A DNA stretch of 64,000 nucleotides from Bacteroidales bacterium (lineage in GTDB: Bacteria; Bacteroidota; Bacteroidia; Bacteroidales; ML635J-15): the NCBI GenBank assembly GCA_017620015.1, contig JAFZRE010000022.1:73173-137172 (forward strand), in the 5' to 3' direction. The notes under the pieces were generated by a model, which worked only from the letters and a program-made list of their open reading frames with translations, was not told the DNA's origin and ran no database searches. The stretch's first letter is position 1. Each line of letters begins with the position of its first letter. This document shows, one piece after another, positions 7,778-33,100 of this stretch. The translations under genes and the position numbers were made by a program.

Positions 7778-7781
7778 AAAT

Positions 7782-8597
7782 CTAAATTTTACCTTCTGCG
7801 TACCCCATTTTCACATCCAATTCGTAGTTATACGACGAACGATGGCTATAGCGTCCTTTGACATATATCAACTTGTCCTCGTATTTCTCGAAATCCTCAT
7901 CAGGAACTAAATTTCCATCAATCGAAACGCAACCGTCACGACCATCGAGTACAGCACCAAGAGCCTCGTCCGTTTCCAAAATTTCAGAAAATAAGATTTC
8001 ATCATACGACGGCTTTACATAGTGACCGTCCATAGTAAGCACACCGACCTTGCCATCCTTGTGAAGTTCAAACATGCAGTCATCGTACCACGAATGCCCG
8101 TCATCCTCGTTGGTTATGTAGATTGGTCGGAAAACGACCTCATCCATTATGCACGGAACAAGCAACCTGCCTTTCTTGTCGGCAACACCTTTCTTCCCCG
8201 AATTTGAAACGACAAAAAACTTGTCCAAGCTCTCAATTTCATCATATTGAAAATCAAGAACAACTGTACCATTTCCATCTGGCAAGACAAGTCCCCACTT
8301 TCCTTCCGACATTGCAGGAACAGGAAACTTTCTGTCGTTGACCTTTCCACAGCAACAACCTAAACGCTCGTATTTTGCAGGAACAAGCACCTCATCCTTT
8401 ATGTTTACCAACTTCTCACGGCCATTTTCCACAACAACATAATCCATCCAATCGTAATTGTCGCAAATATCATAGAATGCAATTCGTGAAGCCTCTACAT
8501 CCTCGTCAGGCAATTTGTTGGCTACCGCCGCCTTGTATTCCAAATATAGTTTTTGCATCTTAGAAAGCTGTTCCTTATGAGCATGCTGTTTTTCCAT
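7782..8597 (-). CDS. WG (KWG) repeat-containing protein
   Basis: ORF 7782..8741, with likely start MEKQHAHKEQ (cat at 8595-8597). It carries repeats of the GKWGLV..G..V..F.YD type (GKWGLVLPDGNGTVVLDFQYDEIE, GKKGVADKKGRLLVPCIMDEV, GKVGVLTMDGHYVKPSYDEI). Confidence 0.7.
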   Translation of the reverse strand: MEKQHAHKEQLSKMQKLYLEYKAAVANKLPDEDVEASRIAFYDICDNYDWMDYVVVENGREKLVNIKDEVLVPAKYERLGCCCGKVNDRKFPVPAMSEGKWGLVLPDGNGTVVLDFQYDEIESLDKFFVVSNSGKKGVADKKGRLLVPCIMDEVVFRPIYITNEDDGHSWYDDCMFELHKDGKVGVLTMDGHYVKPSYDEILFSEILETDEALGAVLDGRDGCVSIDGNLVPDEDFEKYEDKLIYVKGRYSHRSSYNYELDVKMGYAEGKI

Positions 8598-16589: not shown

Positions 16590-16825
16590 ACGTTGTCTGG
16601 ATTTATAACCTTTAGCTCTCAATGTTGTCTGGATTTGTAACCTTTAGCTCGTTGCCAATGGCAACAACCTTCAGCTCGCTGCTTATGGCAGCAATCCAGA
16701 CAATGTGAATATAAGGATTTTTAATCCGCATTACTGATATTCAAGTCTTTCGGATTACTGCCTGGCAGTGAGCTAAAGGTTGCCGCAATAGGGCGAGCTA
16801 AAGGTTTCAAATCCGAAAGGACATA
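16590..16825. repeat. mosaic palindromic intergenic repeat (BIME-like), copy A
   Basis: The 12-mer aacctttagctc occurs at 16607 and 16639, and its reverse complement gagctaaaggtt at 16770 and 16795. ttgtctggatt occurs at 16593 and 16624, with aatccagacaa at 16693. Small hairpins are gttgccaatggcaac, gctgcttatggcagc and actgcctggcagt. Confidence 0.8.
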
Positions 16826-16926: not shown

Positions 16927-19900
16927 TTACGGTGCATAAACAGGACGAACAGACAGTCCTGAACAGCGACGACTGCGGTTTACGCTACAACCACCCGAAT
17001 AGAAATAAATATTCCAAGCACTATTTGGGGGAACAGTGTAGAGCGAACTCGAATAATATTCACCATAAGAGCCGGCTCCGATTAAACTGATATTGTTATA
17101 GTAACCAGCAGCGGGCAGGAAGATAGAGTTGCCATTCTGTCCTGTAAACAAGCGTCCGTTTACACCATTCCGTGTTGTCCAAGACATCGTACAATTAGTT
17201 CTCAATTCTACCATTTCTGTATATGTAGGCATTCTCCAGCCTGCCCCCCAGTTGGCAGTGGCGGCATCATCACATGCTTCGAGAAGTGTAAGAGTATCGG
17301 AAAAACTATTATTGCCGTATCTTGAGTCGTTGCAGTACTTGGTAAGTTTTGGATCATCATCAGAAATTCCATTGGCATACATATATGCATCCCATGAATA
17401 TTCATCTTTTGGAGAAGTCTCCCCCCATGCAAAATAATCGCCGTAATCTTCTGGATTTGTTGCACCAACATTGCAAGTTGCCCACTTGGTACCACTTGGC
17501 AAAGCCAAGTCAACCCATTCATATCCGTTTAGCATACCTGTAGGCTCTCCGACATTTTCTGTTGTAAACGACATCTCTTCACCATACGCAGTGTCTACAA
17601 TATTTGTTGCGTAAGTTCTATAATAATATGTAGTAACTGGATTTAACCTAATTGTTCTTGTAAAGGCTCCCGTACTATTACCACATTGCACAATTTCCGT
17701 AAGATTATCCGCACTGGTTCCATACATAAATCCGCGTGCAGTTACAAATGCACCGCCATTAGAGATTACATTACCGGAAAAGGTTGCGCCATAGGCTGTT
17801 ATATTTGATACAGCGTTTGTGATTACAGTCGGCACAGAAATGGTAGTGCTATCATTATCATTACCGATATGACAAACAGGACGAACAGCCAATCCCCAAC
17901 TACGGCTTATAACTACCAAGGAACTATTTTCATAGTCTCCTACAAGTCCCCATGCTCCAGTAGGATTATTCGTACTGAGTGAACTTGACCAATAATATGC
18001 GACATTAGGATTTACCATATCATTTTCGTTATATGGATACACGCATGGCAAAAAAATAGAATTACCATTGGGTCCGACATACATATTGCCAGGCATTCCG
18101 TTCTGAGTAGTCCATATTACCGTACAATTAGTATTTAATTCGTCGAATTCTGTGTTTGTCGGCATACGCCAAACAGAGCCCCAGTTTGCTGTAGCGGCAT
18201 CGTCGCTTGCTTCCAAAGTGTTAAGAGCATCGGTAAAACCATTATTACCATAACTTGAATTACTGCAGTATTTCGTTAATGTATTACTACTTCTATTGCA
18301 GTAGCGATAGGTTGTCCAGTTATAAACCTGATTCTTAGTAGATAATTCGCCCCATGCATAGTGGTTGCCAGCCTCTAGGGGCAGGGTTGCTCCCAAATTG
18401 CAGGTTGCCCAAAGAGTACCAGAAGGAAGGCCAAGGTCAACATATCCATGTTCATTCATATAACCAGAAGGTAATGATGCAGGAGGGGTTGCGTCCGTTT
18501 CAAATGACCATACTTGACCATACCCAGTTCCCACACTATTTGTTGCGTATGCCTTGAAATAATAGGTAGAACCAGAAGAAAGTCCCGTTAGTTCGGCTGT
18601 ATAACTACCAGTCCCCGAACCACTTTGTATGCTATTATATAGACTATCTCGATGTGTACCATATAAAAATCCTCGCTCTGTTACCATGTCATTCCCGCCA
18701 TACGTAACATTAGCACTAATTGTTGCTGTATTATTTGTAACATTACTCAAATAACCTGTTGTTACTCTAGGAATTACCGGCTCACAGTCTGCAGAAATTG
18801 TTGCTTCCCAACCTGCTCTTGTTACACTTCCGTAGGAATGCCATACAATTGTCATTGCGCCACTATATGCAGTAACTGTTGATGGAATATTAGAACCAGT
18901 CGCATAATATATCAATCTTTGACCAGTAGCCTCATTATTATCATATACATCCATGTAATCTGAATTCCCAGTCTCAAAACTGGAGAAAGACAACGTTATA
19001 CGCCCCTCAGATGTAAATGTTGCATTCATATTTTCACCATTCGAATACCCACCATTAGATCCTCCAGAATCATAAAAGTCGAAAGCCTGCCCACATCCAA
19101 CATTTAAAACAAGACCATCAACCATAATGACAGCGCTATCAGTCGTAAAGGACAATATTTCGCCGTAAGCAGTTCCCTCAATATTGGTAGCATAGGCCTT
19201 ATAATAATAAGTAGCGCCTACTTCTAACGAGTTAATAACCGCAGAAAAAGATGTTGACATAGAACTAGAAACAACCTCATATTCAAGGCTATCTGGTGAA
19301 TGTCCATAATAAAATCCACTTGCAGTTATCTCCGCTCCACCATCATTTGTTATTAAAGCGTTAATCTTTGCAGATGTGAGAGAAATCTCTGTTGCTGCCA
19401 ATGTTTCAACACTCGGCCTTAAATAATATGTAAACTGCAATATAACTTCCTGACTTATGTATAATGCCTGAGTTATAGTTCTACTTTCAACAACATTGCC
19501 GTCAATAGTTGCATAACCTACGTATTGAATAACGTCTCCTAAAACAAATTCATGATCAGAGTACAATTTTGCAGGTAGCCCTACATATCCACTATAATTT
19601 ATACCATCATTGCCACCGCTTCCAACATTTACCATCCTTACAGAATAGGTATGTTCGCCGGCAATCGCCTTCAAGATATATGTCTGCGTTTTTGCTGCTG
19701 TAATTTCAAACTTATGCGAACCTGCATTCAGAGCGACATTCAATTCCGCGCATTGCTTTCCTGCGACATCAAAAAGTTGCAACATAACATTTTCGTCATG
19801 CGGAATTGCAAGTTCAACCGAAGTATGACAATCAAACGGATTAGGCACATTCTGTTCAAAGCCAACAGCAGACATTTCCGCATCAGATACATTTACTGTA

Positions 19901-20103
19901 GCATTTACCACAATCATAGTGTCGGGATAAACAACAGTTTCTGTCCAGCCACGTGTCGTGTTAGTAAACTTGACGCTATCCATCCGCAGATATCGAGAAT
20001 CGTTTAGCCGTCCTATAAAACGGACAGAGAAATTATCCGCCATCTGCCCCATCACTACAAAGGAAAGCATTACAAACAAGGCTACTGACAATATTCTTTT
20101 CAT
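16927..20103 (-). CDS. large secreted multidomain protein: signal peptide + N-terminal T9SS-CTD-like sandwich + Fn3-like modules + CUB-like module + two FISUMP-like (C-type-lectin-like) head domains
   Basis: ORF 16927..20199, with likely start MKRILSVALFVMLSFVVMGQ (cat at 20101-20103). FEQNVPNPFDCHTSVELAIP..VMLQLFDVAGKQ..LNAGSHKFEI..YILKA..SVRMVNVG resembles the T9SS CTD consensus. There are three Y.AYATN..GT.YGE..SFTT modules. The two heads carry VDLGLPSGT.WATCN.GA..YFAWGE..DDAATANWG..WRMPT..E..EL..C...NGNSIFLP..G...YWSSS...VRPV. Confidence 0.8.
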   Translation of the reverse strand: MKRILSVALFVMLSFVVMGQMADNFSVRFIGRLNDSRYLRMDSVKFTNTTRGWTETVVYPDTMIVVNATVNVSDAEMSAVGFEQNVPNPFDCHTSVELAIPHDENVMLQLFDVAGKQCAELNVALNAGSHKFEITAAKTQTYILKAIAGEHTYSVRMVNVGSGGNDGINYSGYVGLPAKLYSDHEFVLGDVIQYVGYATIDGNVVESRTITQALYISQEVILQFTYYLRPSVETLAATEISLTSAKINALITNDGGAEITASGFYYGHSPDSLEYEVVSSSMSTSFSAVINSLEVGATYYYKAYATNIEGTAYGEILSFTTDSAVIMVDGLVLNVGCGQAFDFYDSGGSNGGYSNGENMNATFTSEGRITLSFSSFETGNSDYMDVYDNNEATGQRLIYYATGSNIPSTVTAYSGAMTIVWHSYGSVTRAGWEATISADCEPVIPRVTTGYLSNVTNNTATISANVTYGGNDMVTERGFLYGTHRDSLYNSIQSGSGTGSYTAELTGLSSGSTYYFKAYATNSVGTGYGQVWSFETDATPPASLPSGYMNEHGYVDLGLPSGTLWATCNLGATLPLEAGNHYAWGELSTKNQVYNWTTYRYCNRSSNTLTKYCSNSSYGNNGFTDALNTLEASDDAATANWGSVWRMPTNTEFDELNTNCTVIWTTQNGMPGNMYVGPNGNSIFLPCVYPYNENDMVNPNVAYYWSSSLSTNNPTGAWGLVGDYENSSLVVISRSWGLAVRPVCHIGNDNDSTTISVPTVITNAVSNITAYGATFSGNVISNGGAFVTARGFMYGTSADNLTEIVQCGNSTGAFTRTIRLNPVTTYYYRTYATNIVDTAYGEEMSFTTENVGEPTGMLNGYEWVDLALPSGTKWATCNVGATNPEDYGDYFAWGETSPKDEYSWDAYMYANGISDDDPKLTKYCNDSRYGNNSFSDTLTLLEACDDAATANWGAGWRMPTYTEMVELRTNCTMSWTTRNGVNGRLFTGQNGNSIFLPAAGYYNNISLIGAGSYGEYYSSSLYTVPPNSAWNIYFYSGGCSVNRSRRCSGLSVRPVYAP

Positions 20104-20129
20104 GCACAAATCGTTTTTATTGTTAGACA

Positions 20130-20137
20130 CAAAAGTA
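20130..20137 (-). promoter_or_regulatory. -7 box TACTTTTG for the 1090-aa gene
   Basis: The plus strand reads caaaagta, 27 nt upstream of the ATG at 20103. Confidence 0.5.
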
Positions 20138-20202
20138 CAATATCTTGTGACAAATATAATATTTCTAAATATAAAATTACATGTAACTAGCACGAGCAAT
20201 CA

Positions 20203-21809
20203 TTATCGACATACTGGGCGTACAGGTCGTCCCCAACAGCGGATTTGTACAGTAATACCACTCGGTGTCCAGTATTCCATATCAAGAACATAATCATCAA
20301 ATATGATAGCAGTATGAGGACTGTTGCCTCCACCATTATTGCATGAGTTGAGCGTACTCGTCCAATAAGTACATTTATCATTTCCTGGCATTGTAGCTTC
20401 GACAGCGAAACCAGCAGAGGGCAGGAAAATGGAATAGCCGTTAGGTCCAGTAAACTGCAATCCTGGCACTCCGTTCAGGGTAGTATAAGCATGAGTACAA
20501 TATTCCACCAATTCCACAAATTCTTCTTTTGTCGGTGTACGCCAACCACTACCCCAATTGAAAGTAGCGGCATCATCAATAGGTTGCAAAACTGTCAAGG
20601 TGTCAACAAATCCTCCATACCCGAAATTTGTATCGCAGCAATATTTAATTCCGAACCTGCACATAAGTCATAATGTTGCCAGTTATATCTTTCTTTTGGG
20701 TACACCTCTGCCCACGCATAATAATTGCCAGATTCTTCAGGAGCAGTTGCGCCGACATTGAAGGTTGCCCACTTTGTAGCTGATGGCAGCCCAAGGTCAA
20801 CCCAGTCGTATCCGTTTAGAGTTCCTGTTGGATCGCCTACAGTTGCAGTCGTAAACGACATAACACTGCCGTAATATGTACCATCGCTATTGGTAGCGTA
20901 TGCCTTATAATAATAGGTGGTGTTAATATCCAGCGAATCTATGGTCGCAGAAAAATTCATTTCCGTAGAACTTGATTCCACTTGATTGTCAAGGGCATCC
21001 GGAGTAAGACCATAATAAAAGCCACGGTCTGTTATCTCCAAGTTTCCATCATAACTGATTAATCCATTTAGCTTTGCAGATACTCGGGTAACCTCGGTTG
21101 CCGCCAATGTTTCGACCTGAAGTATAGAATAATAGGTGAAGTGCAATATGACTTCCTGATTTATGTACAATACCTGATTTATCGTCCTGCTTTCTACAAA
21201 ATTGCCATCAATGGTTGCATAGCCTACATACTGAATGTTATCTCCCAGAACAAATTCATTTTCAGAGTACAATTTTGCAGTTATACCAGCATATCCGCTA
21301 TACTGTATGCCATCGCTACCTCCTCTACCAACATTCAGCATACGCACAGAATATGTCTTGGCTCCAGCAACTGCCTTCAAAATGTACATCTGCGGTTTCG
21401 ATGCCGATATTTCAAAGCTATGCGAACCTGCCAACAAGTTGACATTCAATTCAGAACATAGTTTTCCAAGTTCATCATAAAGTTGCAGGCAGACCTTTTC
21501 ATCCTGCGGAATGGAAAGTTCAACCATAGTATGGCAGTCGAAAGGATTCGGCACATTCTGTTCAAAACCTGCCGCCGAGATTTCCTTTTCCGGAACATTT
21601 ACCATTAAGTTGAGTACAATTACCGTATCAGGATAAATCACTGTTTCCGACCACCCACGAACCGTATTCGTCACCGTAACGCTATCAAGCCGCTGATACA
21701 TAGACCCGTTTAGCTGTCCCCTAAAACGAACAGTCAGACTTTCAATCGATTGTCCCATCATTACAAAAGACAGCAAAACAAACACTGCTACTGATAATAA
21801 TCTTTTCAT
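20203..21809 (-). pseudogene. frameshifted paralog of the 1090-aa protein (N-terminal module + one Fn3-like module + one FISUMP-like head)
   Basis: ORF 20595..21827 carries MKRLLSVAVFVLLSFVMMGQ... through ..GYDWVDLGLPSATKWATFNVGA..YYAWAEVYPKERYNWQHYDLC. ORF 20203..20664 continues the head in another frame (..GIKYCCDTNFGYGGFVDTLTVLQPIDDAATFNWGSGWRTPTKEEFVEL...GRPVRPVCR). The frame switch lies within about 20640-20665. Confidence 0.8.
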
Positions 21810-21904
21810 ATACATACAATATTTCATCTATACATTTTACATAACGCGAAAAAGTTCAAATGGTTGCCTAAAATTAACAAAAAAATAATGCCACATTACA
21901 TTTT

Positions 21905-22045
21905 TTTTCATTGTTGTCATTGTTGTCTGGCTTTATGCGCATTATAAATGCTGACACTCAAACCTTTCGGATTGCTGCCTCTGGCAGCGAGCTAAAGGTT
22001 GCCCATAGGGCGAGCTAAAGGTTGCAAATCCGAAAGAACCAAGAA
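21905..22045. repeat. mosaic palindromic intergenic repeat, copy B
   Basis: cctttcggattgctgcctctggcagcgagctaaaggttgcccatagggcgagctaaaggttgcaaatccgaaag matches the right half of copy A (16747-16820) almost unit for unit. Confidence 0.8.
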
Positions 22046-22089
22046 ACGGAAGTTAATCTAAAATCGTAAATCGTACCTCGCAAATCCCT

Positions 22090-22158
22090 TTAATCCACCT
22101 TATTCTCATCGTACCCCAACCTACCTACGAGCATCAAATTTTCGTATGAATAGTTCAC
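22090..22158 (-). pseudogene. ghost copy of the last 22 codons + stop of the KASIII-SDR gene
   Basis: 22090-22158 and 22308-22376 differ at 5 of 69 positions. Both translate to VNYSYENLMLVGRLGYDENKVD-stop. Confidence 0.85.
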
Positions 22159-22160
22159 TC

Positions 22161-22300
22161 AATGTTGTCTGGATTTGCAATCCAGACGAAGCGAATATAA
22201 GGATTTATAATCCGCCTAAGATTGTTCTGCCCCGCATTACAAATGCTAATATTCAAGCCTTTCGGATTACAAATCTGAAAAACTTACGAGAAAAAAAACG
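22161..22300. repeat. mosaic palindromic intergenic repeat, copy C (short form)
   Basis: aatgttgtctggatttgcaatccagacg..gaatataaggatttataatccgc..attcaagcctttcggatta has the same unit order as copy A but lacks the internal aacctttagctc units. Confidence 0.8.
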
Positions 22301-22307
22301 AAAATTT

Positions 22308-24122
22308 TTAGTCCACCTTGTTCTCGTCGTACCCCAACCTGCCTACGAGCATCAAATTTTCGTAGGAATAGTTCACGCCAAGCTGACGCGGAATGTAGAG
22401 CGCATTGACAATCGTTTTGGCAGCAACATCCAAATTCACAAGATTTTCCTGACGCGACTTCACCATAAACTTGAACACCGACTTTTCGGGCAACTGCGAA
22501 ACAAGACCATCGTCCATAAAGCCCAAATGCAGATAAACAGTCCTTATGCCATACTTCGAAAATTCACCGCTTGCCGATGCCAGATAGCCATGGAACGCAC
22601 GCTTCGACGATGCCCACGCATTGTAGTTCTCGTCAAAATTCAAGTCCTCCGCCCCATTTCCTACGGCAAGAATACCTCGTGAAATTTTCTCCACTATGTC
22701 ATTTATAATTTCAATGGGCGCGTACAGATTCACATCCATGCAGTTTTCGGAAGTGCTTTCGGCAAGGTTGACAAGATAGTCGAACTTGACATCCAACGAG
22801 TTAACCTCATCGATAAAACCACGCACCGAAGCCTTGTCGACCAAATTGCACTTCAGAATTTGCGCATTCAGTATATTATTCAAACTTTCTGTATTAGAAT
22901 TGCCTTGCAACCAAAGATTTGCGCCACGCGAAGCCAGCTCCTTGCTTACCGATGTTCCCAATTTGCCCGAAGCACCAAGTACAAGCACATTCTTGCCAGC
23001 AAGTTCGTTATTATGAAGCAAATAATTAGATTTTTCGGCATTAATCTTTCGGTGCAAATATGCAAATCCTCCATAATTTCCGCCAACACCGGCAGTTGCG
23101 CTCAAGATTTTTGCTCCATCGTGGAGTTTTCCTTCCTCGGCGAGCATTGCAAGTCCAAGCGGAACTGTCGAGCCAGAGACATTTCCGTAAAGGTTCTGTG
23201 CCTTCAGGAAAACCTTGTCCATCGGGAAGTTAAGTTCGGCAGCCGCTTGTTTTACAATGACATTGCCAGTCTGATGCGGAACAAAAATATCGACATCACC
23301 AATTCCCCATCCTGCTTCCGACAGACATTCGCGTGAAGCCTTCGGTATGTTCACACAAGCCCTATCCTTGATTACAGAGTCGTCCATGTAGAGATTCCAG
23401 TCATCGTCAACGCCCACATAATCAAGCATTTTCAAATCCTGATAGTTGCAAATGGACAGGATTCCGAATTTCTCGTCTGCTTGCACCCGTTCGACAATCA
23501 CGGCAGCAGCAGCGTCGCCAAAAGTTACAAAGGGGACAAATTTCGTGCGCTTGTTCAGGAACGATGACATTGTCTCGGTATGAGCCACAACTGCATACTT
23601 GGCTTCCTTGTGCAGACGGAAATACTCGATGCACTTCTGCAAGTTCTGATTGAAACCAGCGCAGCCCGACATTAGCGAAAATGCTGGCGTATAGTTCTTT
23701 GCATCGACAAAGAACGACTTTACCGAACCTGCGATTCCCGGTGCCTGCTGATGTGGCGAAACCGTACTTACAAACCACGCGTCAATATCGCCAGCCTGCA
23801 CTTTGGCATCGAGCATAGCGTTTTTCACAGCCTTTACAGCCAGTTCCAACGACGATTCGACCTGCATACGGTTCACGCGCGGCGGGAACGGACGCACATA
23901 ATGACGCTCGTAGAAGCCCATAATGTTACCTGCAAAATAGTCGAAAGGCGTATCATTGGGGTGAGTTTCGCGATATTTCTCGAATTTTGCACTACCGCTA
24001 ATCTTATCCTCGGCAAATCCCTCGAAGTAGCCTTTCTTCAGTGCATCGTAAATGTCGTTGTTGGTAATTGTGAACTTGCCAGCAGAATATCCGAATCCGG
24101 AAAATATGTAGTTCTCAAACAT
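22308..24122 (-). CDS. KASIII (FabH-like 3-oxoacyl synthase III)-SDR fusion protein, SDR catalytic Ser/Tyr replaced
   Basis: 604 aa. The thiolase-fold triad is present: SGC(154)AGF, VPH(283)QTGN, GN(314)VSGST. The C-terminal Rossmann domain has VLVLGASGKLG, but AVGNG and W(503)ASSK replace the SDR Ser and YxxxK Tyr. Confidence 0.8.
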   Translation of the reverse strand: MFENYIFSGFGYSAGKFTITNNDIYDALKKGYFEGFAEDKISGSAKFEKYRETHPNDTPFDYFAGNIMGFYERHYVRPFPPRVNRMQVESSLELAVKAVKNAMLDAKVQAGDIDAWFVSTVSPHQQAPGIAGSVKSFFVDAKNYTPAFSLMSGCAGFNQNLQKCIEYFRLHKEAKYAVVAHTETMSSFLNKRTKFVPFVTFGDAAAAVIVERVQADEKFGILSICNYQDLKMLDYVGVDDDWNLYMDDSVIKDRACVNIPKASRECLSEAGWGIGDVDIFVPHQTGNVIVKQAAAELNFPMDKVFLKAQNLYGNVSGSTVPLGLAMLAEEGKLHDGAKILSATAGVGGNYGGFAYLHRKINAEKSNYLLHNNELAGKNVLVLGASGKLGTSVSKELASRGANLWLQGNSNTESLNNILNAQILKCNLVDKASVRGFIDEVNSLDVKFDYLVNLAESTSENCMDVNLYAPIEIINDIVEKISRGILAVGNGAEDLNFDENYNAWASSKRAFHGYLASASGEFSKYGIRTVYLHLGFMDDGLVSQLPEKSVFKFMVKSRQENLVNLDVAAKTIVNALYIPRQLGVNYSYENLMLVGRLGYDENKVD

Positions 24123-24129
24123 CTTTCAA

Positions 24130-25989
24130 TCAGTAGTTTAGGTAAACATCCTTTATCACCATAAGTTTCTCCTCGAACGAAATACGCACATCGGGCACCT
24201 TGATTCTACACACAGACAGCACCATCCTTTCGGCAATCTCATCGACCTTTGTCAGAACTTTCTGGTTTACAGCCATCATCGAAGCCTGAATCTGCGATTC
24301 GTCGAGTTTCGAAACCATACCGGCACCGATAAGTCCCGGCAGATAATATATGCACTTGACGTCATTTTCGTAAACCTTTCCAGCATACGAACGGGCAAAT
24401 CCACGCAAAGCACGCTTCGACACAACATACGGAGCAGAACCAGCAAACTGAGCATCCTCGCCTACCGAACCTGTTATTAGCACTGCACGACGCACATAAT
24501 CGGACATGCTTTCGCACAAATACCTGATAGACTCGTAGTTTATACGTGCAACATCCTCAAATTCGGATATACCAACCTTTGTGGCACGAGCAAGTCCACC
24601 AGTAACAGCATGTGTATTAATCAAATAATCAACTTCGCCATACTTTTCGGCAATGCGCGACACCAATGCATCAACCTGCGACTTGTCGGACAAATCGACC
24701 TTTTCAATCGAAACAGGCACATTGCATTCGGCAGAGATTTTTTCTTTCAAGCCGTTGATTACCGCAACATTGGAATTGTATAACAATATAAGTTCTGCAC
24801 CTTTGCGAGCTGCCGAAAGTGCAATTTCGCGACCAATGCCACCAGAAGCACCAGTAAGCATCAACGTTCTGCCTTCCAATTCGCGCGACGGTGAAAATTT
24901 GAACTCGCGCGGCGGCATAATGTATGCGAAACCGCCAAATTCACCGCCAAGTCCAGCCACTGCCGTCAAAACCTTGTCGTTTGGCTTCAGCCTACCTTCC
25001 GACATAAGCACATCGAAACAAGCAGGAATAGAAGCGCCGGAAAGGTTTCCGCAATTTATCTGCACATCCTGATAAACCATAGCCTTATCAATGCCAAGGT
25101 TCTGAGCCACAGAATGTACAATTGCATTTCCTGTCTGGTGCGGGATAAATATTGCAAGGTCGTTGATAGTCCAGCCGCACTGCTCAAGCAGTTTTTGTGC
25201 AGTAAATGTAATATTCGGCACTGCACGGCTTTTCACCATACGCGGTTCCATAAAAAGGTTGCCCGAATGGTCGGCACCAAGGAAATCGAGCATTGCAATG
25301 TCCTCGTTGTTGCGAACGGCAACTATGCCGCATTTTTCTTCGGTCTCTACCCTGCTAATCACAACAGCCGCAGCCGAATCACCAAAAGTCGTAAACGGCA
25401 CGAAGTCACGTTCCTCGAGCAAAAGTTCCGACATTACCTCGGAATGAGCAACAACTATATGTTTTGCATCGGAATGTGCATTAAAATATGCCAACGCAGC
25501 CTCAATGTTTGAATTAAAGCCGACGCAAGCCGATGTGAGCGAGAACGACGGCGACTGTTTTTCCTCGGAGCAAAAGTAGGACTTCACGAACTCGGCAATT
25601 CCAGGAGCCTTCTGTGGAGCAGTTGCCGTCCCGACAAACCAAGCATCAATGTCGTTGCCTGAAAGTCCGCTTTTTGCAAGAGCCTTCTCAACTGCGCCTA
25701 CGCATAAAGTGATAGTATCATCGGCATTCTTGTACTGCGAAGCAGCGGGAGGAAACGGCACAACATGGTAGCGCGTCTTGAAGCCCATCTTTGCCTCGGC
25801 CATATAGTCAAAGGCGGTTGTGTTAGGATTTTTTGCCTTGTATGCAGCAAAATTCTCCGACTTTGCAGCCCGCGACTCGTTGAAACCGTCAAGATAGCCA
25901 AGACGAATATACTTCAGTATATCGCCATTTGTAACTTCGTACTTGCCAAGCACAAAGCCAGTTCCGGAAAATATGAAACTTTCAGCCAT
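24130..25989 (-). CDS. KASIII (FabH-like)-SDR fusion protein, both domains with intact catalytic motifs
   Basis: 619 aa with TSACVGF, IPHQTGN and GNLSGAS in the N-terminal domain. The C-terminal domain has MLTGASGGIGREIA, ITGS and YVVSKRA (YxxxK). The gene lies 7 nt upstream of its paralog, and its start overlaps the cyclophilin stop. Confidence 0.8.
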   Translation of the reverse strand: MAESFIFSGTGFVLGKYEVTNGDILKYIRLGYLDGFNESRAAKSENFAAYKAKNPNTTAFDYMAEAKMGFKTRYHVVPFPPAASQYKNADDTITLCVGAVEKALAKSGLSGNDIDAWFVGTATAPQKAPGIAEFVKSYFCSEEKQSPSFSLTSACVGFNSNIEAALAYFNAHSDAKHIVVAHSEVMSELLLEERDFVPFTTFGDSAAAVVISRVETEEKCGIVAVRNNEDIAMLDFLGADHSGNLFMEPRMVKSRAVPNITFTAQKLLEQCGWTINDLAIFIPHQTGNAIVHSVAQNLGIDKAMVYQDVQINCGNLSGASIPACFDVLMSEGRLKPNDKVLTAVAGLGGEFGGFAYIMPPREFKFSPSRELEGRTLMLTGASGGIGREIALSAARKGAELILLYNSNVAVINGLKEKISAECNVPVSIEKVDLSDKSQVDALVSRIAEKYGEVDYLINTHAVTGGLARATKVGISEFEDVARINYESIRYLCESMSDYVRRAVLITGSVGEDAQFAGSAPYVVSKRALRGFARSYAGKVYENDVKCIYYLPGLIGAGMVSKLDESQIQASMMAVNQKVLTKVDEIAERMVLSVCRIKVPDVRISFEEKLMVIKDVYLNY

Positions 25990-26702
25990 TATTTCTTGGC
26001 TTTCTTTTTATTGTTATCAGCGGCGGGAGTCTCTGCCTCTTTAGGTTCGTCCTTGACAACCGTCATCTTTATAATCTTCACATCCTCAACAGGACGGTCA
26101 CCTGGAGCAGTTTCAACTGCCGCAATCTTATCTACAACGCCAAGACCTTCAACGACTTCACCAAATACTGTATATTGGTTGTCGAGATGTGGAGTACCAC
26201 CGATTGTTGCGTATGTGTCGCGTTCCTTTGTTGTGAAAGTTTTACCCATCCTTTTCTCGAACTGATCAAGTTGCATATCGGTATATGTCTGACCCTGAAC
26301 AATGTAGAACTGCGAGCCAGAACTTCTGCGTTCGGGATTTACATTGTCGCCAGTACGGGCGGCAGCAAGAGCGCCTTTCTTATGGAAATGTTTAGGATAA
26401 ACGATTTCGGCAGGAATAGTGTAGCCCGGGTCGCCATTGCCAAGACGAGCATTCGGAGCAGCATTCTTCGACATCGGGTCACCACCTTGAATCATAAAGT
26501 TCTTTATCACACGGTGGAACAACAAACCCTCGTAGAAACCACTTTCAACGAGTTTCACAAAGTTGTCGCGATGCAGCGGAGTATCATCGTAAAGCACGAC
26601 GGTAATATTTCCCTTTGTAGTCTCAATCAACACCTTGGTTGACTGCGAAAAAGCCATTGCCGACATCAGCATCAAGGCAATCAGAAATGATATTTTTCTC
26701 AT
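25989..26702 (-). CDS. cyclophilin-type peptidyl-prolyl cis-trans isomerase, secreted
   Basis: Signal peptide MRKISFLIALMLMSAMAFSQ. Motifs FHRVIKNFMIQGGDP, SQFYIV and VFGEVVEG are present. Confidence 0.9.
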   Translation of the reverse strand: MRKISFLIALMLMSAMAFSQSTKVLIETTKGNITVVLYDDTPLHRDNFVKLVESGFYEGLLFHRVIKNFMIQGGDPMSKNAAPNARLGNGDPGYTIPAEIVYPKHFHKKGALAAARTGDNVNPERRSSGSQFYIVQGQTYTDMQLDQFEKRMGKTFTTKERDTYATIGGTPHLDNQYTVFGEVVEGLGVVDKIAAVETAPGDRPVEDVKIIKMTVVKDEPKEAETPAADNNKKKAKK

Positions 26703-26733: not shown

Positions 26734-26741
26734 CAAAAATA
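26734..26741 (-). promoter_or_regulatory. -7 box TATTTTTG for the cyclophilin / KASIII-SDR operon
   Basis: The plus strand reads caaaaata, 32 nt upstream of the ATG at 26702. Confidence 0.5.
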
Positions 26742-26874
26742 ATAAATTTGACCGACAGCACAAAAATAGCACTGCAAATGGCGAGCCAAAACATAAAATC
26801 AACTTATTGCACCATTTTACAGAGTTTAACAACTTTGATGATTAATAAACATTTGTTTAATTCAATATAATCAT

Positions 26875-26905: not shown

Positions 26906-28075
26906 ATGAAAACTCAGAGATATACTTTAATAGTCATCGCTATTATGGTTGCAATGATGGCGATTAGCAGTTGCAAAAATAAGGAAACCTATATGGTGAC
27001 TTTCGAAGCGAACGGAGGAACTGGCACAATGACACCACAAACATTTACCGATGGAGAATCTCAGGTTCTGACAAAAAATTCTTATACCCGCGAAAACTAT
27101 TCATTTACCAACTGGAGCGTTATGAAGAATGGAAGCGGCACAACCTACAACGACGGTGAAACCATAACTGTCACATTCAATATGACCTTGTACGCGCAAT
27201 GGAAATACACAAATACAACGCTAGGCCCAGAGCCGATTGACTCTGTAATAATAACTTTCGATGCAAACGGCGGAACTGGAGAAATGCCACCGATGTCTTT
27301 TGTTCCAAGAGAAACACATATACTTACGACAAATGCTTTCACAAAGGAAAACTATTGGTTTACTGGCTGGAACACTGCAACAGATGGAAGTGGTACGGTA
27401 TATGCTGATTCACAAGAAATTACAACGGAAGAAGATGTTACTTTGTATGCACAGTGGAGCTTAGGCATAACAGGGAATGCAAACGGACATAATTACGTTG
27501 ACCTTGGACTTCCGAGCGGCAAGAAATGGGCGACCTGCAATGTCGGTGCTGATTCTCCGATTGCATACGGCGACTATTTTGCATGGGGAGAAATTACGCC
27601 TAAGGAAACTTACGACTGGAGTAATTATCTATGGTGCAATGGCGAAGAATCTACTATAACAAAGTATTCGGATAATCCAAACGAAGGCTACAACGGCTTT
27701 ACTGACAATCTTAGGACTTTGCTGCCGGAAGACGATGCCGCCACCACCAACTGGGACGCAAACTGGAGAACACCGACTTATAACGAAATGTCCGAACTGA
27801 GAACCAAAAGCACAGTAACTTGGACTCCCCAGAATGGTGTAAATGGATGTCTGTTTATTGGTCCTAATGGGAACTCAATTTTCTTTCCGGCTGCTGGTAA
27901 TCGCTACAATGACATATCAGGTGGCGCCGAAACTTACGGCAGCTACTGGTGCAGTAATATTACTACTGGTTTTCCTACTGGTGCAAAGTTGCTATTCTTC
28001 GATTCGAATTGTTGCGTACTTGACAATGGCAACCGTTTCTGCGGACAACCTGTCAGAGCAATATTGGTGGAATAG
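26906..28075 (+). CDS. lipoprotein: two Listeria-Bacteroides (InlB B-type) repeats + one FISUMP-like head domain
   Basis: Lipobox AISSC. VTFEANGGTGTMTPQTF..YSFTNWSV..GSGTTY..LYAQW occurs twice. The head is YVDLGLPSGKKWATCNVGA..YFAWGE..DDAATTNW..WRTPTYNEMSEL..NGNSIFFPAAG..YWCS..GQPVRAILV. Confidence 0.8.
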   Translation: MKTQRYTLIVIAIMVAMMAISSCKNKETYMVTFEANGGTGTMTPQTFTDGESQVLTKNSYTRENYSFTNWSVMKNGSGTTYNDGETITVTFNMTLYAQWKYTNTTLGPEPIDSVIITFDANGGTGEMPPMSFVPRETHILTTNAFTKENYWFTGWNTATDGSGTVYADSQEITTEEDVTLYAQWSLGITGNANGHNYVDLGLPSGKKWATCNVGADSPIAYGDYFAWGEITPKETYDWSNYLWCNGEESTITKYSDNPNEGYNGFTDNLRTLLPEDDAATTNWDANWRTPTYNEMSELRTKSTVTWTPQNGVNGCLFIGPNGNSIFFPAAGNRYNDISGGAETYGSYWCSNITTGFPTGAKLLFFDSNCCVLDNGNRFCGQPVRAILVE

Positions 28076-28179
28076 GTGGCGAGGCCGTTTCTGAGTTGAA
28101 TTTGTTTGATAAACTCACGGCAAACAACAATAATCGAACGTTTTTTCTAAAAAACATTTGCTAATTTAAACAAAATACT

Positions 28180-28187
28180 TATTTTTG
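28180..28187 (+). promoter_or_regulatory. -7 box TATTTTTG
   Basis: It lies 27 nt upstream of the ATG at 28215. Confidence 0.5.
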
Positions 28188-28214
28188 TCCGTGTAAATTT
28201 AATAGGTGTATAAT

Positions 28215-29177
28215 ATGAAAAGGATATTATTCTTTGCAATCATCTCCATAGTGGGAATGTTGGCGATTAGTGGGTGCGACAAGCAGAAAACATACGATAT
28301 CGTTTTTGATACAAATGGTGGTACTGGCGAAATGCAATCACAGACACTTACCGAAGGAGAATCTCAGCCCCTTGACGACAATTCATTTGTCAATGAGGGA
28401 CATTCATTTGGCGGATGGAATACATTGCCTGATGGTAGTGGTGTATCTTATAGTGATGGTCAGGACATAACTCTGACTTCCGATATTACGCTATATGCGC
28501 AATGGACAAGCAATGATACGGAATCCGCACCAGATTCACAACAAACAACTGGCAGTTTGAATGGATATGAATGGGTTGACCTTGGACTGCCCAGTGGTAC
28601 ACGTTGGGCTTCTCGCAACATAGGAGCCAAAGACCCAGAAAGCTATGGTGACTATTATGCCTGGGGAGAAGTCACCACCAAAGAAATATACTACTGGCAC
28701 ACCTATCAACACAGCCGTGGAGATGCATATTGTTCCATCACCAAATACTGCCCACTTGGTATTAATGGCTTTGGATACACCTATGGTTACGCAGGCTATA
28801 CTGACAATCGGACTATTCTCGAACCCTGCGATGATGCCGCTACTGTCAACTGGGGTGAAGGATGGCGTATGCCTACCAAAGAAGAAATGGAGGAATTGTT
28901 AAATAATTGCACTAATGTTTGGACTTCCATAAATGGTGTGAACGGAAGAAAATTTATAGGGCCTAATGGCAACTCCATCTTCCTGCCTGCCGCCGGGAAC
29001 TATTACGATGTTCTGCTTTTAGAGGATGATGCCGATGGTTACTACTGGTCAAGTTCTGTTTACTCTGACAATGCAAACTATTCGTGGATAATCAAATTTG
29101 ATTCTAGCAATTGCTTGGTGAACCATCAACATTACCGCTACAGAGGACATCCAGTGCGTCCGGTCTTGGCACAATAA
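28215..29177 (+). CDS. lipoprotein: one Listeria-Bacteroides repeat + one FISUMP-like head domain
   Basis: ORF 28206..29177 (GTG). ATG at 28215 (MKRILFFAIISIVGMLAISGC) is preferred. It has IVFDTNGGTGEMQSQTL..HSFGGWNT..GSGVSY..LYAQW, followed by the head WVDLGLPSGTRWASRNIGA..YYAWGE..DDAATVNWGEGWRMPTKEEMEEL..NGNSIFLPAAG..YWSSS..GHPVRPVL. Confidence 0.8.
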   Translation: MKRILFFAIISIVGMLAISGCDKQKTYDIVFDTNGGTGEMQSQTLTEGESQPLDDNSFVNEGHSFGGWNTLPDGSGVSYSDGQDITLTSDITLYAQWTSNDTESAPDSQQTTGSLNGYEWVDLGLPSGTRWASRNIGAKDPESYGDYYAWGEVTTKEIYYWHTYQHSRGDAYCSITKYCPLGINGFGYTYGYAGYTDNRTILEPCDDAATVNWGEGWRMPTKEEMEELLNNCTNVWTSINGVNGRKFIGPNGNSIFLPAAGNYYDVLLLEDDADGYYWSSSVYSDNANYSWIIKFDSSNCLVNHQHYRYRGHPVRPVLAQ

Positions 29178-29231: not shown

Positions 29232-29648
29232 TTATTTATCGTTATCCTTATTAAGCAAATTGTCAACTTCTTCTATGAAGCGTTGTGCTTTTGGATAAAG
29301 TTCATCTATATCTTCGCGAGTTGAATATACAAATTCTTCATAGTCTCCTCGTTGCCTGCAATCGTACAAGTTTGAGAAAGCCCTTCCGCTCTCTTTTGTA
29401 ATAAGTCCTTTTGAAACAAAATGCAGTCCAAGCAAAGTTTTGACTCCTGCGTGGGTGCTTGTCGAAATATGGTATTGGGGCAATAATGCAACCGCTGCAT
29501 AATAGCAAGCATAATAAAGACGATTTGTCGCTGTATTGTAGAACCCTTTTTCGTAGAGGAAAGGAATTTCCGCCAAAGTTTCGTGTGCACGTTCCTGCCT
29601 GTATTTCGACAGAGCATCGTAGTTTTCGTTCGTCAATTCGTTTTTCAT
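29232..29648 (-). CDS. HEPN domain protein (toxin of an MNT-HEPN pair)
   Basis: 138 aa and all-helical. NRLYYACYYAAVALL..H.STHAGV..F is typical of the small HEPN family. It has a 4-nt overlap with the upstream nucleotidyltransferase gene. Confidence 0.75.
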   Translation of the reverse strand: MKNELTNENYDALSKYRQERAHETLAEIPFLYEKGFYNTATNRLYYACYYAAVALLPQYHISTSTHAGVKTLLGLHFVSKGLITKESGRAFSNLYDCRQRGDYEEFVYSTREDIDELYPKAQRFIEEVDNLLNKDNDK

Positions 29649-29959
29649 AGCGTTATTCCTTCGTTTCTAACATTGTATTGGAAAGGAGTAATAAAAGGTC
29701 GGTTTTCCCATTCCTTGCGAAGCATAACTATAATGCTGATAATGACACCAGTGTCAAGTTCTATGTCGTAAAATGGAGCAATGATACTGTCTTTTTCGCT
29801 GTATGTGAGTTTGTCTGCATCAACAAGCATCAAAAGGTCAATGTCGGAATCGGGTCTTGCATCGCCACGCGCTTCGGAACCGTAAAGTATTGTCTGCACT
29901 TTCGGTTTAATCTTGCTTGCTTCGCTTCTAATTCTTTCAACAATGCCTTGTCGTCTCAT
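29645..29959 (-). CDS. minimal nucleotidyltransferase (MNT antitoxin partner of HEPN)
   Basis: In-frame part of ORF 29645..30166, with start MRRQGIVERI (cat at 29957-29959). The NTase motif is LYGSEARGDARPDSDIDLLML. Confidence 0.75.
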   Translation of the reverse strand: MRRQGIVERIRSEASKIKPKVQTILYGSEARGDARPDSDIDLLMLVDADKLTYSEKDSIIAPFYDIELDTGVIISIIVMLRKEWENRPFITPFQYNVRNEGITL

Positions 29960-30085
29960 TTTAGCCAAAATCTTATACTGCAAATATATAAGTTTTTTTT
30001 TGAGATGCAATAATAATTCGAAATAAATCATTTTCCATTGTCCAATTAAATCGTAAATCGGCATTCGTAAATCGTAAATAAATTG

Positions 30086-30093
30086 TATTTTTG
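30086..30093 (+). promoter_or_regulatory. -7 box TATTTTTG for ileS, preceded by an AAATCGT periodic tract (30048-30085)
   Basis: The sequence reads aaatcgtaaatcggcattcgtaaatcgtaaataaattgTATTTTTGcacc, with the ATG 21 nt downstream. Confidence 0.55.
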
Positions 30094-30113
30094 CACCACT
30101 TAAAAATTGTACA

Positions 30114-33100
30114 ATGACAAAGAAGTTTTCCGAGTATAAGCAACTCGATTTGTTTGAGATTAACAACGAAATGAAGGACCTCTGGGCAAAGGAGGATACC
30201 TTTCACAAAAGTATAGAAACCCGCGAAGGCTGCAAGCCTTTCATCTTCTTCGAAGGTCCGCCATCGGCAAACGGAATGCCTGGTATCCATCATGTTATGG
30301 CTCGTACAATCAAGGACGTTGTTTGCCGCTACAAGACTTTGACTGGTCACAAGGTTGACCGCAAGGCAGGTTGGGATACCCACGGTCTGCCAGTGGAACT
30401 CGGTGTGGAAAAGACTCTCGGCATCACCAAGGAGGACATCGGCAAGAAGATTTCAGTTAGCGACTACAACGACACCTGCCGTCGCGAAGTTATGAAATAC
30501 ACAAGCCACTGGACCGACCTTACCGAACGCGTCGGTTACTGGGTTGACCTCGAAAATCCGTACATCACATACGATAACCGCTACATCGAGACTTTGTGGT
30601 GGCTGTTGAAGCAACTCTATAACAAGAACTTGCTTTACAAGGGCTACACCATTCAGCCGTATTCGCCGGCTGCAGGTACCGGACTTAGCACCCACGAACT
30701 CAATCAGCCGGGTTGCTACCGCGATGTAAAGGACACGACCGTAACCGCTCAGTTTGCAATCATCGACCCGAAGCCCGAAATGACTGGCTGGGGAAAACCT
30801 TATTTCATTGCTTGGACAACCACGCCGTGGACTTTGCCTTCGAACACAGCACTCTGCGTTGGTCGCAAGATTGAATACGTTGCTGTTCGCACATATAATA
30901 TGTACACTGGCGAGCCTGTTACAGTCGTAATGGCAAAGGAAAGGGTTAACGCATACTTGAATCCGCAAGGCGCAGAACTTCCGCTCGAGGAATACAAGCA
31001 CGGCGACAAGGTAATACCTTATAGAATAGTTGCCGAATATACAGGCGAAGACCTTCTCGATATGCGCTACGAGCAGATTTTCCCGTGGGTTAAGCCTGCC
31101 GATGGTGCTTTCCGCGTAATTCCTGGCGACTATGTTACCACCGAGGACGGTACCGGTATCGTACATATTGCTCCGACTTTCGGTGCCGACGATAACAAGG
31201 TTGCAAAGGCTGCTGGAATTCCGCCGCTGGTAATGATTATCAACAGCAAGGGCGATTTCCGTCCGATGGTTGACCGTACAGGAAAGTTCTTCCTTATGAG
31301 CGACCTCGACCCCGAATTCGTAAAGAACAACATAAATGTTGACTTGTATTCGAAGTACGAAGGCTGTTTCGTAAAGAACGCCTACGACCCGAAGTACAAT
31401 GTCGATGGAAAATACGACGCCGAAGCCGCTGCCAAGGACGAGGACTTGAACATACGCCTTTGCATCGAGATGAAGCAGGACGGCAAGGCTTTCAAGATCG
31501 AAAAGCACACTCACAACTATCCGCACTGCTGGCGTACCGATAAGCCCGTGTTGTACTATCCGCTTGATTCATGGTTTATTAAGTCAACAGCAATGCGCGA
31601 CCGTATGATTGAACTTAACAAAACAATCAACTGGAAACCGCAGAGCACTGGCGAAGGCCGTTTCGGAAAATGGTTGGAAAACCTTGTTGACTGGAACCTC
31701 AGCCGTTCGCGCTACTGGGGAACTCCGCTGCCAATTTGGAGTACCGAGGACGCAAGCGAACGCAAGTGCATAGGTTCTGTCGAGGAACTTTACGCCGAAA
31801 TGGACAAGTCAATCGCCAAGGGATATATGAAGGAATATCCGTGGAAGAACTTCGAGGTTGGCAAATACACCAAGGAAAACTACGAAAACCTTGACTTGCA
31901 TCGTCCGTATGTTGATGAGATTGTGCTTGTTGCATCGGATGGCCGTAAGATGTTCCGAGAACCTGACCTTATCGATGTTTGGTTCGATTCGGGTGCAATG
32001 CCTTATGCACAGTGGCATTATCCGTTCGAGAACAAGGACAGGTTCGACAAGTTGTTCCCGGCTGATTTCATCGCCGAGGGCGTTGACCAGACTCGCGGTT
32101 GGTTCTTCACACTGCACGCAATTGCAACAATGATTTTCGACAGCGTAGCATACAAGAACATCATTTCCAACGGTTTGGTACTCGATAAGAACGGCAACAA
32201 GATGTCGAAGAGACTCGGCAATGCTGTAAATCCGTTCGAAACTATCGACAAATACGGTGCCGACCCCGTTCGCTGGTATATGATTACCAACGCACAGGCT
32301 TGGGACAACCTCAAGTTCGACATTGCCGGAGTTGACGAGGTGAAGCGCAAATTCTTCGGAACTTTGTACAACACCTACAATTTCTTTGCAATGTACGCCA
32401 ACACCGACAATTTCACTTACGCAGAACCAGATGTTCCGTTCGAGAAGCGTCCCGAACTCGACCGATGGATTCTCAGCTTGTTGAACACTTTGGTAAAGGA
32501 AGTCGGCGAGGCTTACGAAACTTACGAAAATACAAAGGCAGGCCGTCTGATTCAGACTTTCGTGATGGACCACCTGAGCAACTGGTATGTTCGTCTCGGT
32601 AGAAAGCGCTACTGGGGCGGCGAGTATGACGAGGACAAGATTTCGGCATACCAGACGCTCTATACCTGCTTGATAACCATTGCAAAGATTGCTTCGCCGA
32701 TTGCACCGTTCTACATGGACAAGATGTATCGCGACCTCAATGCCGTTACAGGTAAGGAAAACTACGAATCGGTTCATCTTGCTTATTTCCCGAAGGTTAA
32801 CGAACAAATAATCGACAAGAGCCTTGAGGAAAGGATGGAAATGGCACAGACTATTTCATCTATGATTCTCGGTTTGCGCCGCAAGGTCAGCATCAAGGTT
32901 CGCCAGCCGTTGCAGAAGATTATGGTTCCGTCGGTTTCGGACGACTTTGCAGAGCAAATGGCTAAGGTTGAGCAGATTATCAAGACCGAAACCAACATCA
33001 AGGAAATCCAGATTCTCGACGATTCGTCCGATTTCTTGGTAAAGAAGATTAAGGCGAACTTCAAGGTTCTTGGTCCACGTTACGGCAAGATTATGAAGCA

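Follow-up and report, generated by a model that had tools for sequence, protein, structure and literature searches.

The stretch of DNA analysed here (the window) comprises 64,000 nucleotides (nt) of contig JAFZRE010000022.1 from a Bacteroidales bacterium, and carries on its minus strand two adjacent paralogous genes, A and B, each encoding a FabH-like ketosynthase of the KASIII type fused to a short-chain dehydrogenase/reductase (SDR). The SDR domain of B is dead at its catalytic site; it is nevertheless under strong purifying selection and is conserved, not decaying. The combination of a KASIII-SDR fusion, tandem paralogs, repeated and selected loss of a reductase, and a coupled crotonase appears to be previously undescribed; all four domains come from very well known enzyme families and the novelty lies in their combination. 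The reading preferred here, to which we give an even chance, is that A and B together make up an enzyme dedicated to condensation and reduction, in which one subunit contributes a catalytic reductase and the other a scaffold, usually accompanied by a dehydration activity.

Gene A (24130..25989, minus strand) encodes a protein of 619 amino acids (aa) with an active-looking reductase, and gene B (22308..24122, minus strand), which follows after 7 nt, one of 604 aa with a dead reductase site. Open reading frame (ORF) and Pfam data define both genes, complemented by family membership for A and an AlphaFold2 (AF2) model for B; A belongs to the A-clade and B to the Trp-type part of the B-clade, both described below. 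Upstream of A lies a third minus-strand ORF (25989-26702, 237 aa) for a cyclophilin-type peptidyl-prolyl isomerase, whose stop codon overlaps the start of A in a TAATG sequence (25987..25991) kept in most rumen-clade loci. An earlier description made without database searches (the sequence-only reading) had proposed these three ORFs, the overlap and the 7-nt gap. All were found at the coordinates it gave, and its motifs and residue numbers were borne out as well.

Both fusions displayed the same Pfam layout, namely ACP_syn_III and ACP_syn_III_C (~residues 90-354) followed by adh_short (~residues 376-565), the three profiles that had been suggested as a check. The adh_short match was far stronger in A (E 1.5e-26, plus a KR match) than in B (E 3e-9), and the two proteins were 36% identical from end to end (BLASTP, E 2e-134). 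According to Pfam and alignment data, the ketosynthase domain of A (24904..25989, ~residues 1-362) contains a family-specific helical insert of ~35 aa near its N-terminus and the residues Cys155, His284 and Asn315, in motifs SACVGF, IPHQTGN and GNLSGAS starting at residues 153, 282 and 314. Its classical SDR domain (24130..24903, ~residues 363-619) displays TGASGGIG from residue 379, ITGS from 505 and YVVSK from 521, which supply Ser508, Tyr521 and Lys525. The corresponding domains of B, likewise on the minus strand, are a ketosynthase with Cys154, His283 and Asn314 (23037..24122; invariant columns, substitution rates and fold match) and a pseudo-SDR (22308..23036; alignment) with LGASGKLG from residue 382 and an AVGN motif ending at Asn489. 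The codon of Trp503 in this domain reads CCA on the plus strand (22614-22616).

Catalytic positions were assigned in a MAFFT alignment of 237 full-length homologues with E. coli FabH and FabG as landmarks only; the Cys112, His244 and Asn274 columns proved self-consistent. These three columns contained Cys, His and Asn in both A and B, in agreement with the intact triads first proposed. In the SDR part, Asn489 of B aligned with FabG Ser138 and Trp503 with Tyr151, while Lys155 was kept (Lys507). The BLASTP alignment of A against B gave the same register, so the Asn and Trp that had earlier been aligned by eye do fall on the catalytic Ser and Tyr positions. The Asn-Ser-Tyr-Lys tetrad of SDRs is complete in A (Asn, Ser508, Tyr521, Lys525) and broken in B. 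The glycine-rich motif of the Rossmann fold, TGASGGIG in A, takes the GxxGxxG form LGASGKLG in B with Gly16 replaced by Lys, and the SDR of B further displays a ~12-aa deletion after the NNAG region and a clade-specific C-terminal tail.

An artefactual fusion had been named as a possible objection. More than 230 full-length two-domain homologues were recovered from independent assemblies, and the fusion is therefore not an assembly artefact. The window itself, from a rumen lineage of Bacteroidales, was 92-99% identical to UBA1184, RUG and RGIG metagenome-assembled genomes (MAGs). Word-indexed searches that used A or B as query returned ~200 matches each, nearly all of them two-domain metagenome proteins of 600-630 aa with only generic database names ("SDR family NAD(P)-dependent oxidoreductase", "3-oxoacyl-ACP synthase III"). 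Named sources were Bacteroidales, Salinivirgaceae and Marinilabiliales, and one divergent member was annotated Aminicenantes. An exhaustive HMMER search over 1.84 billion cluster representatives gave 28 matches at E <=1e-30, of which ~20 (clusters at 50% identity) were full-length; SDR-SDR and FabD-FabH architectures that also emerged were rejected as unrelated proteins. Beyond the family, scores dropped from 300-775 bits for full-length members to ~90 bits for ordinary FabHs of ~320 aa, which is why we regard the family as compact and isolated. For the most part, it seemed almost confined to uncultured anaerobic Bacteroidales (rumen, digesters and sediments), and little is known of the lipids and signals that this group makes.

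No two-domain counterpart was found in the PDB by sequence or by Foldseek, where the best query-normalised TM-score was 0.49 and covered the ketosynthase half only. Neither the literature (mainly open-access coverage) nor the PDB offered a characterised KASIII-SDR fusion or a counterpart dependent on coenzyme A (CoA). The statement of the sequence-only reading that no characterised example was known accordingly stood against open-access literature, PDB sequences and PDB folds.

Clustering of the 237 members uncovered two deep clades. The A-clade (117 members) was nearly uniform, with Asn-Ser-Tyr-Lys in 116 and Asn-Thr-Tyr-Lys in the remaining one. The B-clade (120 members) comprised three subclades: an intact one with Asn-Ser-Tyr-Lys (16 members); a Trp type, which holds B of the window and displays mostly Asn-Thr-Trp-Asn or Asn-Asn-Trp-Lys (54 members); and a Phe type with mostly Asn-Ala-Phe-Lys (50 members). 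The Trp and Phe subclades share the deletion of ~12 residues after the NNAG region and the conserved C-terminal tail, and the LGASGxLG motif and the adenine-binding Asp were kept at >=90% in the B-clade. The Cys-His-Asn triad of the ketosynthase was invariant (237/237).

Ratios of non-synonymous to synonymous substitution (dN/dS), calculated from 10 rumen-clade orthologues, were 0.049 for the ketosynthase and 0.066 for the SDR of A, and 0.039 and 0.091, respectively, for those of B. The dead SDR domain is thus under strong purifying selection. The AF2 model of B formed one compact two-domain body (pLDDT 94.1, pTM 0.93).

Loss of the catalytic Tyr occurred independently at least three times according to a neighbour-joining tree: in the Trp/Phe clade, in P0250 of Salinivirgaceae and in P0242/L036_g1 of Aminicenantes. 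The second-gene SDR of the Salinivirgaceae pair (P0250) was so degenerate that Pfam missed it. The Aminicenantes pair (locus L036) displayed the reverse situation, with a dead first gene, placed by the tree on its A side, and an intact second one. Two further divergent members had His at the Tyr position. That either member of a pair can lose its reductase, the first in L036 and the second in the window, fits a complex in which one reductase site is enough, and speaks for members that are equivalent except within the complex.

The heteromer of an active and a pseudo-reductase put forward by the sequence-only reading hence gained strong comparative support from whole dead clades, repeated origin and purifying selection; the association itself is what we infer from these sequences, and the dead SDR of B would serve in it as a scaffold. 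Petunia benzaldehyde synthase, an alpha2-beta2 SDR, likewise pairs a catalytic SDR with a paralogous dead one and acts on an acyl thioester, its dead beta subunit being essential for assembly and helping to form the benzoyl-CoA pocket (PMC13418739). In contrast to that enzyme, each SDR is here fused to an active-looking ketosynthase, and it is sequence comparison that points to the heteromer. A comparable arrangement is that of HSD17B8/CBR4, the ketoacyl reductase of human mitochondria. The A-B pair would also illustrate cleanly how a pseudoenzyme can evolve within a fusion.

Pairs of active and inactive condensing enzymes are known as well, in the heterodimer PqsBC and in the KS-CLF pairs (ketosynthase and chain length factor) of type II polyketide synthases (PKS). 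These also derive from tandem paralogous thiolase-fold genes of which one partner has lost its active site. In A and B, however, as in all homologues, both ketosynthases keep the Cys-His-Asn triad and the loss affects the fused reductase, and a pair of the PqsBC/KS-CLF type was ruled out on this ground.

A sensory role for the SDR of B was considered very unlikely: as an atypical SDR of the NmrA-like kind, the domain would sense redox state or nucleotides and adjust the ketosynthase or the reductase in response to the NAD(P)H/NAD(P)+ ratio, in place of a passive scaffold role. The retained GxxGxxG motif and the purifying selection on the domain agree with such a role, and so does a match to Pfam NmrA (E 0.002); this match, however, falls short of the threshold and is limited to the N-terminal portion of the Rossmann fold.

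Both proteins lie outside the curated FabH and FabG families. Against the FabH NCBIfam models TIGR00747 and NF006829 (cut-offs 249 and 292.1 bits), A reached 129.1 and 112 bits and B 127.5 and 119.1 bits; against the FabG equivalog TIGR01830 (cut-off 297.75 bits), A reached 88.5 and B 28.1 bits. With scores so far under the curated cut-offs, the two are set apart from housekeeping FabH and FabG, as had been supposed, and a housekeeping identity is disfavoured. Relatedness to these enzymes is evident all the same from the fold, the Cys-His-Asn triad and the FabG-type Asn-Ser-Tyr-Lys tetrad in the SDR of A. The best ketosynthase folds retrieved with the AF2 model of B were 8vd9 and 1zow (Foldseek, TM 0.92), that is, B. 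subtilis FabHA and S. aureus FabH, and PqsD and BioZ ranked lower than FabH among PDB sequence and fold matches. The differences are that both activities reside here in one chain of 600-620 aa with a family-specific N-terminal helical insert, that the genes are tandem paralogs with one dead reductase, that the partner enzyme is a crotonase and not FabZ, that FabH scores remain below about half the curated family cut-offs, and that Arg36, Arg151 and Arg249 of FabH are replaced. Relative to E. coli FabH, both clades displayed Arg249 -> Ala/Val, Lys214 -> Ser/Asp and Arg151 -> Phe, with Arg36 variable. In E. coli FabH, Arg249 and Lys214 dock the acyl carrier protein (ACP), and Arg36 and Arg151 bind the CoA phosphate. 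In addition, Phe87 is Ala in the family, which suggests a primer larger than acetyl.

These features could also belong to an ACP-dependent module for alternative fatty-acid initiation, in which FabH and FabG activities would work on the housekeeping ACP, e.g. for branched or 3-hydroxy priming. The top sequence and fold matches are indeed genuine FabH and FabG, the change of Phe87 to Ala is as expected for a larger primer pocket, and the neighbourhoods resemble housekeeping regions without a biosynthetic cluster; none of the Bacteroidales loci contained a dedicated carrier gene, which makes a shared housekeeping ACP plausible. This possibility was nonetheless rated as distinctly unlikely. The scores are far under the curated FabH/FabG cut-offs, neither clade keeps Arg249 or Lys214 for ACP docking, and the linked dehydratase is a crotonase instead of a hot-dog enzyme such as FabZ or FabA. 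Moreover, the family forms a compact island of ~20 clusters at 50% identity in some anaerobic Bacteroidales, and well-studied genera are not among the names.

Conservation of the gene arrangement was surveyed among relatives, as the sequence-only reading had recommended. The A-B tandem was kept down to 55-57% identity, whereas the cyclophilin gene was found upstream of A only in a rumen sub-lineage at >=76% identity (L001-L012, L018 and L033). The place of the cyclophilin gene was taken in 10 divergent loci by a crotonase gene (ECH_1, 246-260 aa). The order crotonase, A-like, B-like was encountered in L013, L014, L015, L017, L021, L030, L034, L036 and L037, as well as in L035, where an aldehyde dehydrogenase gene is inserted. 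In most of these loci the crotonase gene overlaps the A-like gene or precedes it by 0 to ~30 nt, the gap being ~100 nt in L035 and ~200 nt in L037. Pfam E-values of these crotonases reached 1e-48 to 2e-48, and the nearest NCBIfam models were those of short-chain enoyl-CoA hydratases, at scores below their cut-offs. The motifs GGGxEL and LPE, which hold the two catalytic Glu residues, were both present. Absence of a dehydratase, asserted by the sequence-only reading, consequently stands for this window and fails for the family, in which a crotonase adjoins the A-like gene. The position of the crotonase gene in the 10 divergent loci indicates an ancestral module that condenses, reduces and dehydrates. 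The condense-then-reduce module proposed at first retains its two fusions, their triads and one intact reductase.

The cyclophilin, which had been counted as part of the system, was itself well supported as such (Pro_isomerase, PF00160, E 5.6e-46, residues 24-215). Its N-terminus (MRKISFLIALMLMSAMAFS) resembles a signal peptide by inspection, and no such signal was seen in A or B. The TAATG overlap is created by a Lys-rich extension at the C-terminus of the cyclophilin, which some relatives lack. The gene is probably co-transcribed with A and B, but a functional link is unlikely given its restriction to the rumen sub-lineage at >=76% identity and its signal peptide; phylogenetic distribution and predicted location ruled it out as a functional partner. 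Two tandem cyclophilin genes precede A in several rumen-clade relatives, namely L001, L004, L005, L007, L008, L011, L018 and L020 (~6400-7990), the second copy being ~70% identical to the single one of the window.

In the preferred reading of A and B as two subunits of one condensing and reducing enzyme, each ketosynthase would perform a decarboxylative Claisen condensation of the FabH type, with the acyl thioester primer on Cys and with His and Asn driving decarboxylation of the malonyl unit. The SDR of A would reduce the resulting 3-oxoacyl thioester to its 3-hydroxy form with NAD(P)H. The SDR of B should be incapable of canonical ketoreduction; still folded and probably able to bind a nucleotide, it would persist as a scaffold or as a pocket-forming partner of the A reductase. 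In most lineages, the co-transcribed crotonase would then dehydrate the 3-hydroxyacyl thioester, giving the 2-enoyl form; the rumen lineage to which the window belongs has no linked crotonase gene. This order of steps is a proposal drawn from the predicted activities, and the product would probably be a lipid-like molecule.

Crotonases usually act on CoA thioesters, and elongation dependent on CoA is familiar from the KCS/KCR/HCD/ECR elongase of plants and from engineered reverse beta-oxidation with NphT7, a reductase and a crotonase. Like these systems, the loci described here combine a ketosynthase, a ketoreductase and a dehydratase without a dedicated carrier protein; unlike them, they consist of soluble bacterial fusions, lack a linked enoyl reductase, and use CoA only by presumption. 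No ACP, FabH or FabG homologue was detectable elsewhere within the 64-kb window, and no conserved ACP, thioesterase, enoyl reductase or other lipid gene surrounded the Bacteroidales pairs examined. A more specific and tentative proposal, which we hold to be possible and somewhat doubtful, is that crotonase, A-type and B-type proteins form a hitherto unrecognised, carrier-protein-independent mini-synthase of anaerobic Bacteroidales, an obligate heteromer whose dead reductase serves structure or pocket, and which would make a small lipid, signal or membrane building block outside type II fatty-acid synthesis. A carrier-independent machine of this kind would be a natural counterpart of the engineered malonyl-driven modules of reverse beta-oxidation.

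A head-to-head condensation in the manner of OleA and OleD, also entertained by the sequence-only reading, would join two acyl chains without decarboxylation and leave the SDR to reduce the 2-alkyl-3-ketoacyl product. Its logic of thiolase-fold condensation followed by SDR reduction of a beta-keto product is the same, and an enlarged acyl pocket is predicted as well (Phe87 -> Ala). The ketosynthase, however, is nearer to FabH: OleA did not appear in the top 60 matches to PDB sequences or the top 50 from Foldseek, unlike FabH, PqsD, BioZ and FabG. The SDR of A is of the classical adh_short/KR type and not of the OleD type. Neither an oleB-like gene (alpha/beta-hydrolase) nor an oleC-like one (AMP-ligase-like beta-lactone synthetase) was seen in the window or in the loci examined, and the conserved partner is instead a crotonase whose closest similarity is to short-chain enoyl-CoA hydratases, at scores under their cut-offs. 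The idea was held to be highly improbable.

Several observations weigh against the two-subunit enzyme favoured here. The crotonase was found neither in the window (best tblastn E 2.9) nor within <=8 kb on either side of the rumen-clade pairs, and dehydration may for this reason not apply in the rumen lineage of the window. The ACP-docking Arg249 and the CoA-binding Arg36/Arg151 are both replaced, so that the carrier may be either CoA or ACP, and some crotonase-family enzymes, e.g. FabM and RpfF, act on ACP thioesters. Unpaired members occurred in L019, L026, L028 and L038, and L031 contained a Phe-type B-like gene alone; A-B pairing is therefore not universal, or else partners can be unlinked. 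Finally, both ketosynthases look active; B as a whole therefore cannot be a scaffold and nothing more, and the presence of two ketosynthases is left unexplained.

The explanation ranked as the main rival to the heteromer is a two-step extension line in which A and B would act in turn on one chain; only one beta-keto group would be reduced, the omission by B being programmed. A and the crotonase might, for instance, carry out a first condensation with reduction and dehydration, after which B would add a second, unreduced extension. The product would be a 3-oxo-4-enoyl or a 3-hydroxy-5-oxo thioester, which might lactonise or be released as a small signal or a pigment precursor. In favour of this line, the triad is invariant in both ketosynthases, where purifying selection is also strongest, and several family members displayed weak Pfam matches to type III PKS and plant KCS (Chal_sti_synt_C and FAE1_CUT1_RppA). 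Candidate release or tailoring enzymes are encoded near divergent pairs, namely, in L036, a LuxC-like acyl-CoA reductase with a cassette for pyrrole formation and, in L035, an aldehyde dehydrogenase. On the other hand, an unneeded SDR in B should decay or be deleted, yet this domain is conserved (dN/dS 0.09) with its Gly motif kept; both reductases are intact in L035, and the Bacteroidales loci contain no conserved cyclase, thioesterase or carrier gene. On balance, the two-step line was judged unlikely.

As for transcription of the three-gene unit, a single promoter box had been reported at 26734-26741. A second box of the Bacteroidetes type TAnnTTTG was detected here, so that two precede the cyclophilin gene on the minus strand (26741-26734 and 26768-26761); by consensus match only, the region 26734..26768 is a candidate promoter. 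A sigma-70/terminator scan, which does not cover Bacteroidetes promoters, revealed no intrinsic terminator either separating the genes or following them.

The spacer between A and B was 176-304 nt longer than that of the window in L006, L008 and L011. Dispersed intergenic repeats of ~40-110 nt (e.g. CGCATTAyAAATGCT...CCTTTCGGATT) were found in the window at 21830-22310 and 16618-16822, downstream of B and of a gene for a 1090-aa surface protein, respectively. Several copies also occurred in L004, L005, L006, L008, L009, L012 and L016, among which L006 and L008 had them just downstream of B. The window further contains, at 22089-22167, a 79-nt copy of the 3' end of B (22307-22385) that is 89% identical, includes the stop codon and lies 218 nt downstream of the end of B. 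It looks like the remnant of a local duplication or repeat insertion.

The operon is flanked in the window by List_Bact_rpt/Lcl_C surface proteins, a HEPN/nucleotidyltransferase pair and the isoleucyl-tRNA synthetase (IleRS). Paralogous predicted surface proteins or lipoproteins are encoded on both of its sides (16927-21827 and 26906-29177); they display Listeria-Bacteroides repeats, Lcl_C (DUF1566-like) C-terminal domains and a shared GYxWVDLGLPSGxxWAxxNxGA motif. One of these genes (20203-21827) is apparently split into two overlapping ORFs and may represent a frameshift or a pseudogene. The HEPN (29232-29648) and nucleotidyltransferase (~29645-29956) genes, on the minus strand within 29232-30166 of the window, form a typical toxin-antitoxin-like module just upstream of the IleRS gene.

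Some divergent loci were richer in neighbouring enzymes. Beside the crotonase gene and the two fusion genes of L036 (4745-17875, an Aminicenantes MAG contig) are encoded the LuxC-like acyl-CoA reductase and a second crotonase. The same neighbourhood holds genes for a PigA/RedW-like prolyl-carrier-protein dehydrogenase (399 bits), an enzyme of amino-acid adenylation, a carrier protein and a B12-binding radical SAM protein, with a proline racemase, an ornithine cyclodeaminase and a glycyl-radical enzyme upstream. This neighbourhood suggests a pyrrole-primed product in that lineage. The aldehyde dehydrogenase between the fusions of L035 (9844-11121) is a divergent protein of 425 aa that matched no NCBIfam equivalog and is not ProA; both SDR tetrads of this locus are intact. 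Locus L038 (8001-15027) contained a very divergent single fusion with His-x-Tyr-Arg in the tetrad columns, the Ser column being mis-indexed. The fusion was followed by a stand-alone SDR of 248 aa and two B12-binding radical SAM proteins, one with DUF4070, and a B12 radical SAM gene thereby adjoins the system in L036 as well as in L038.

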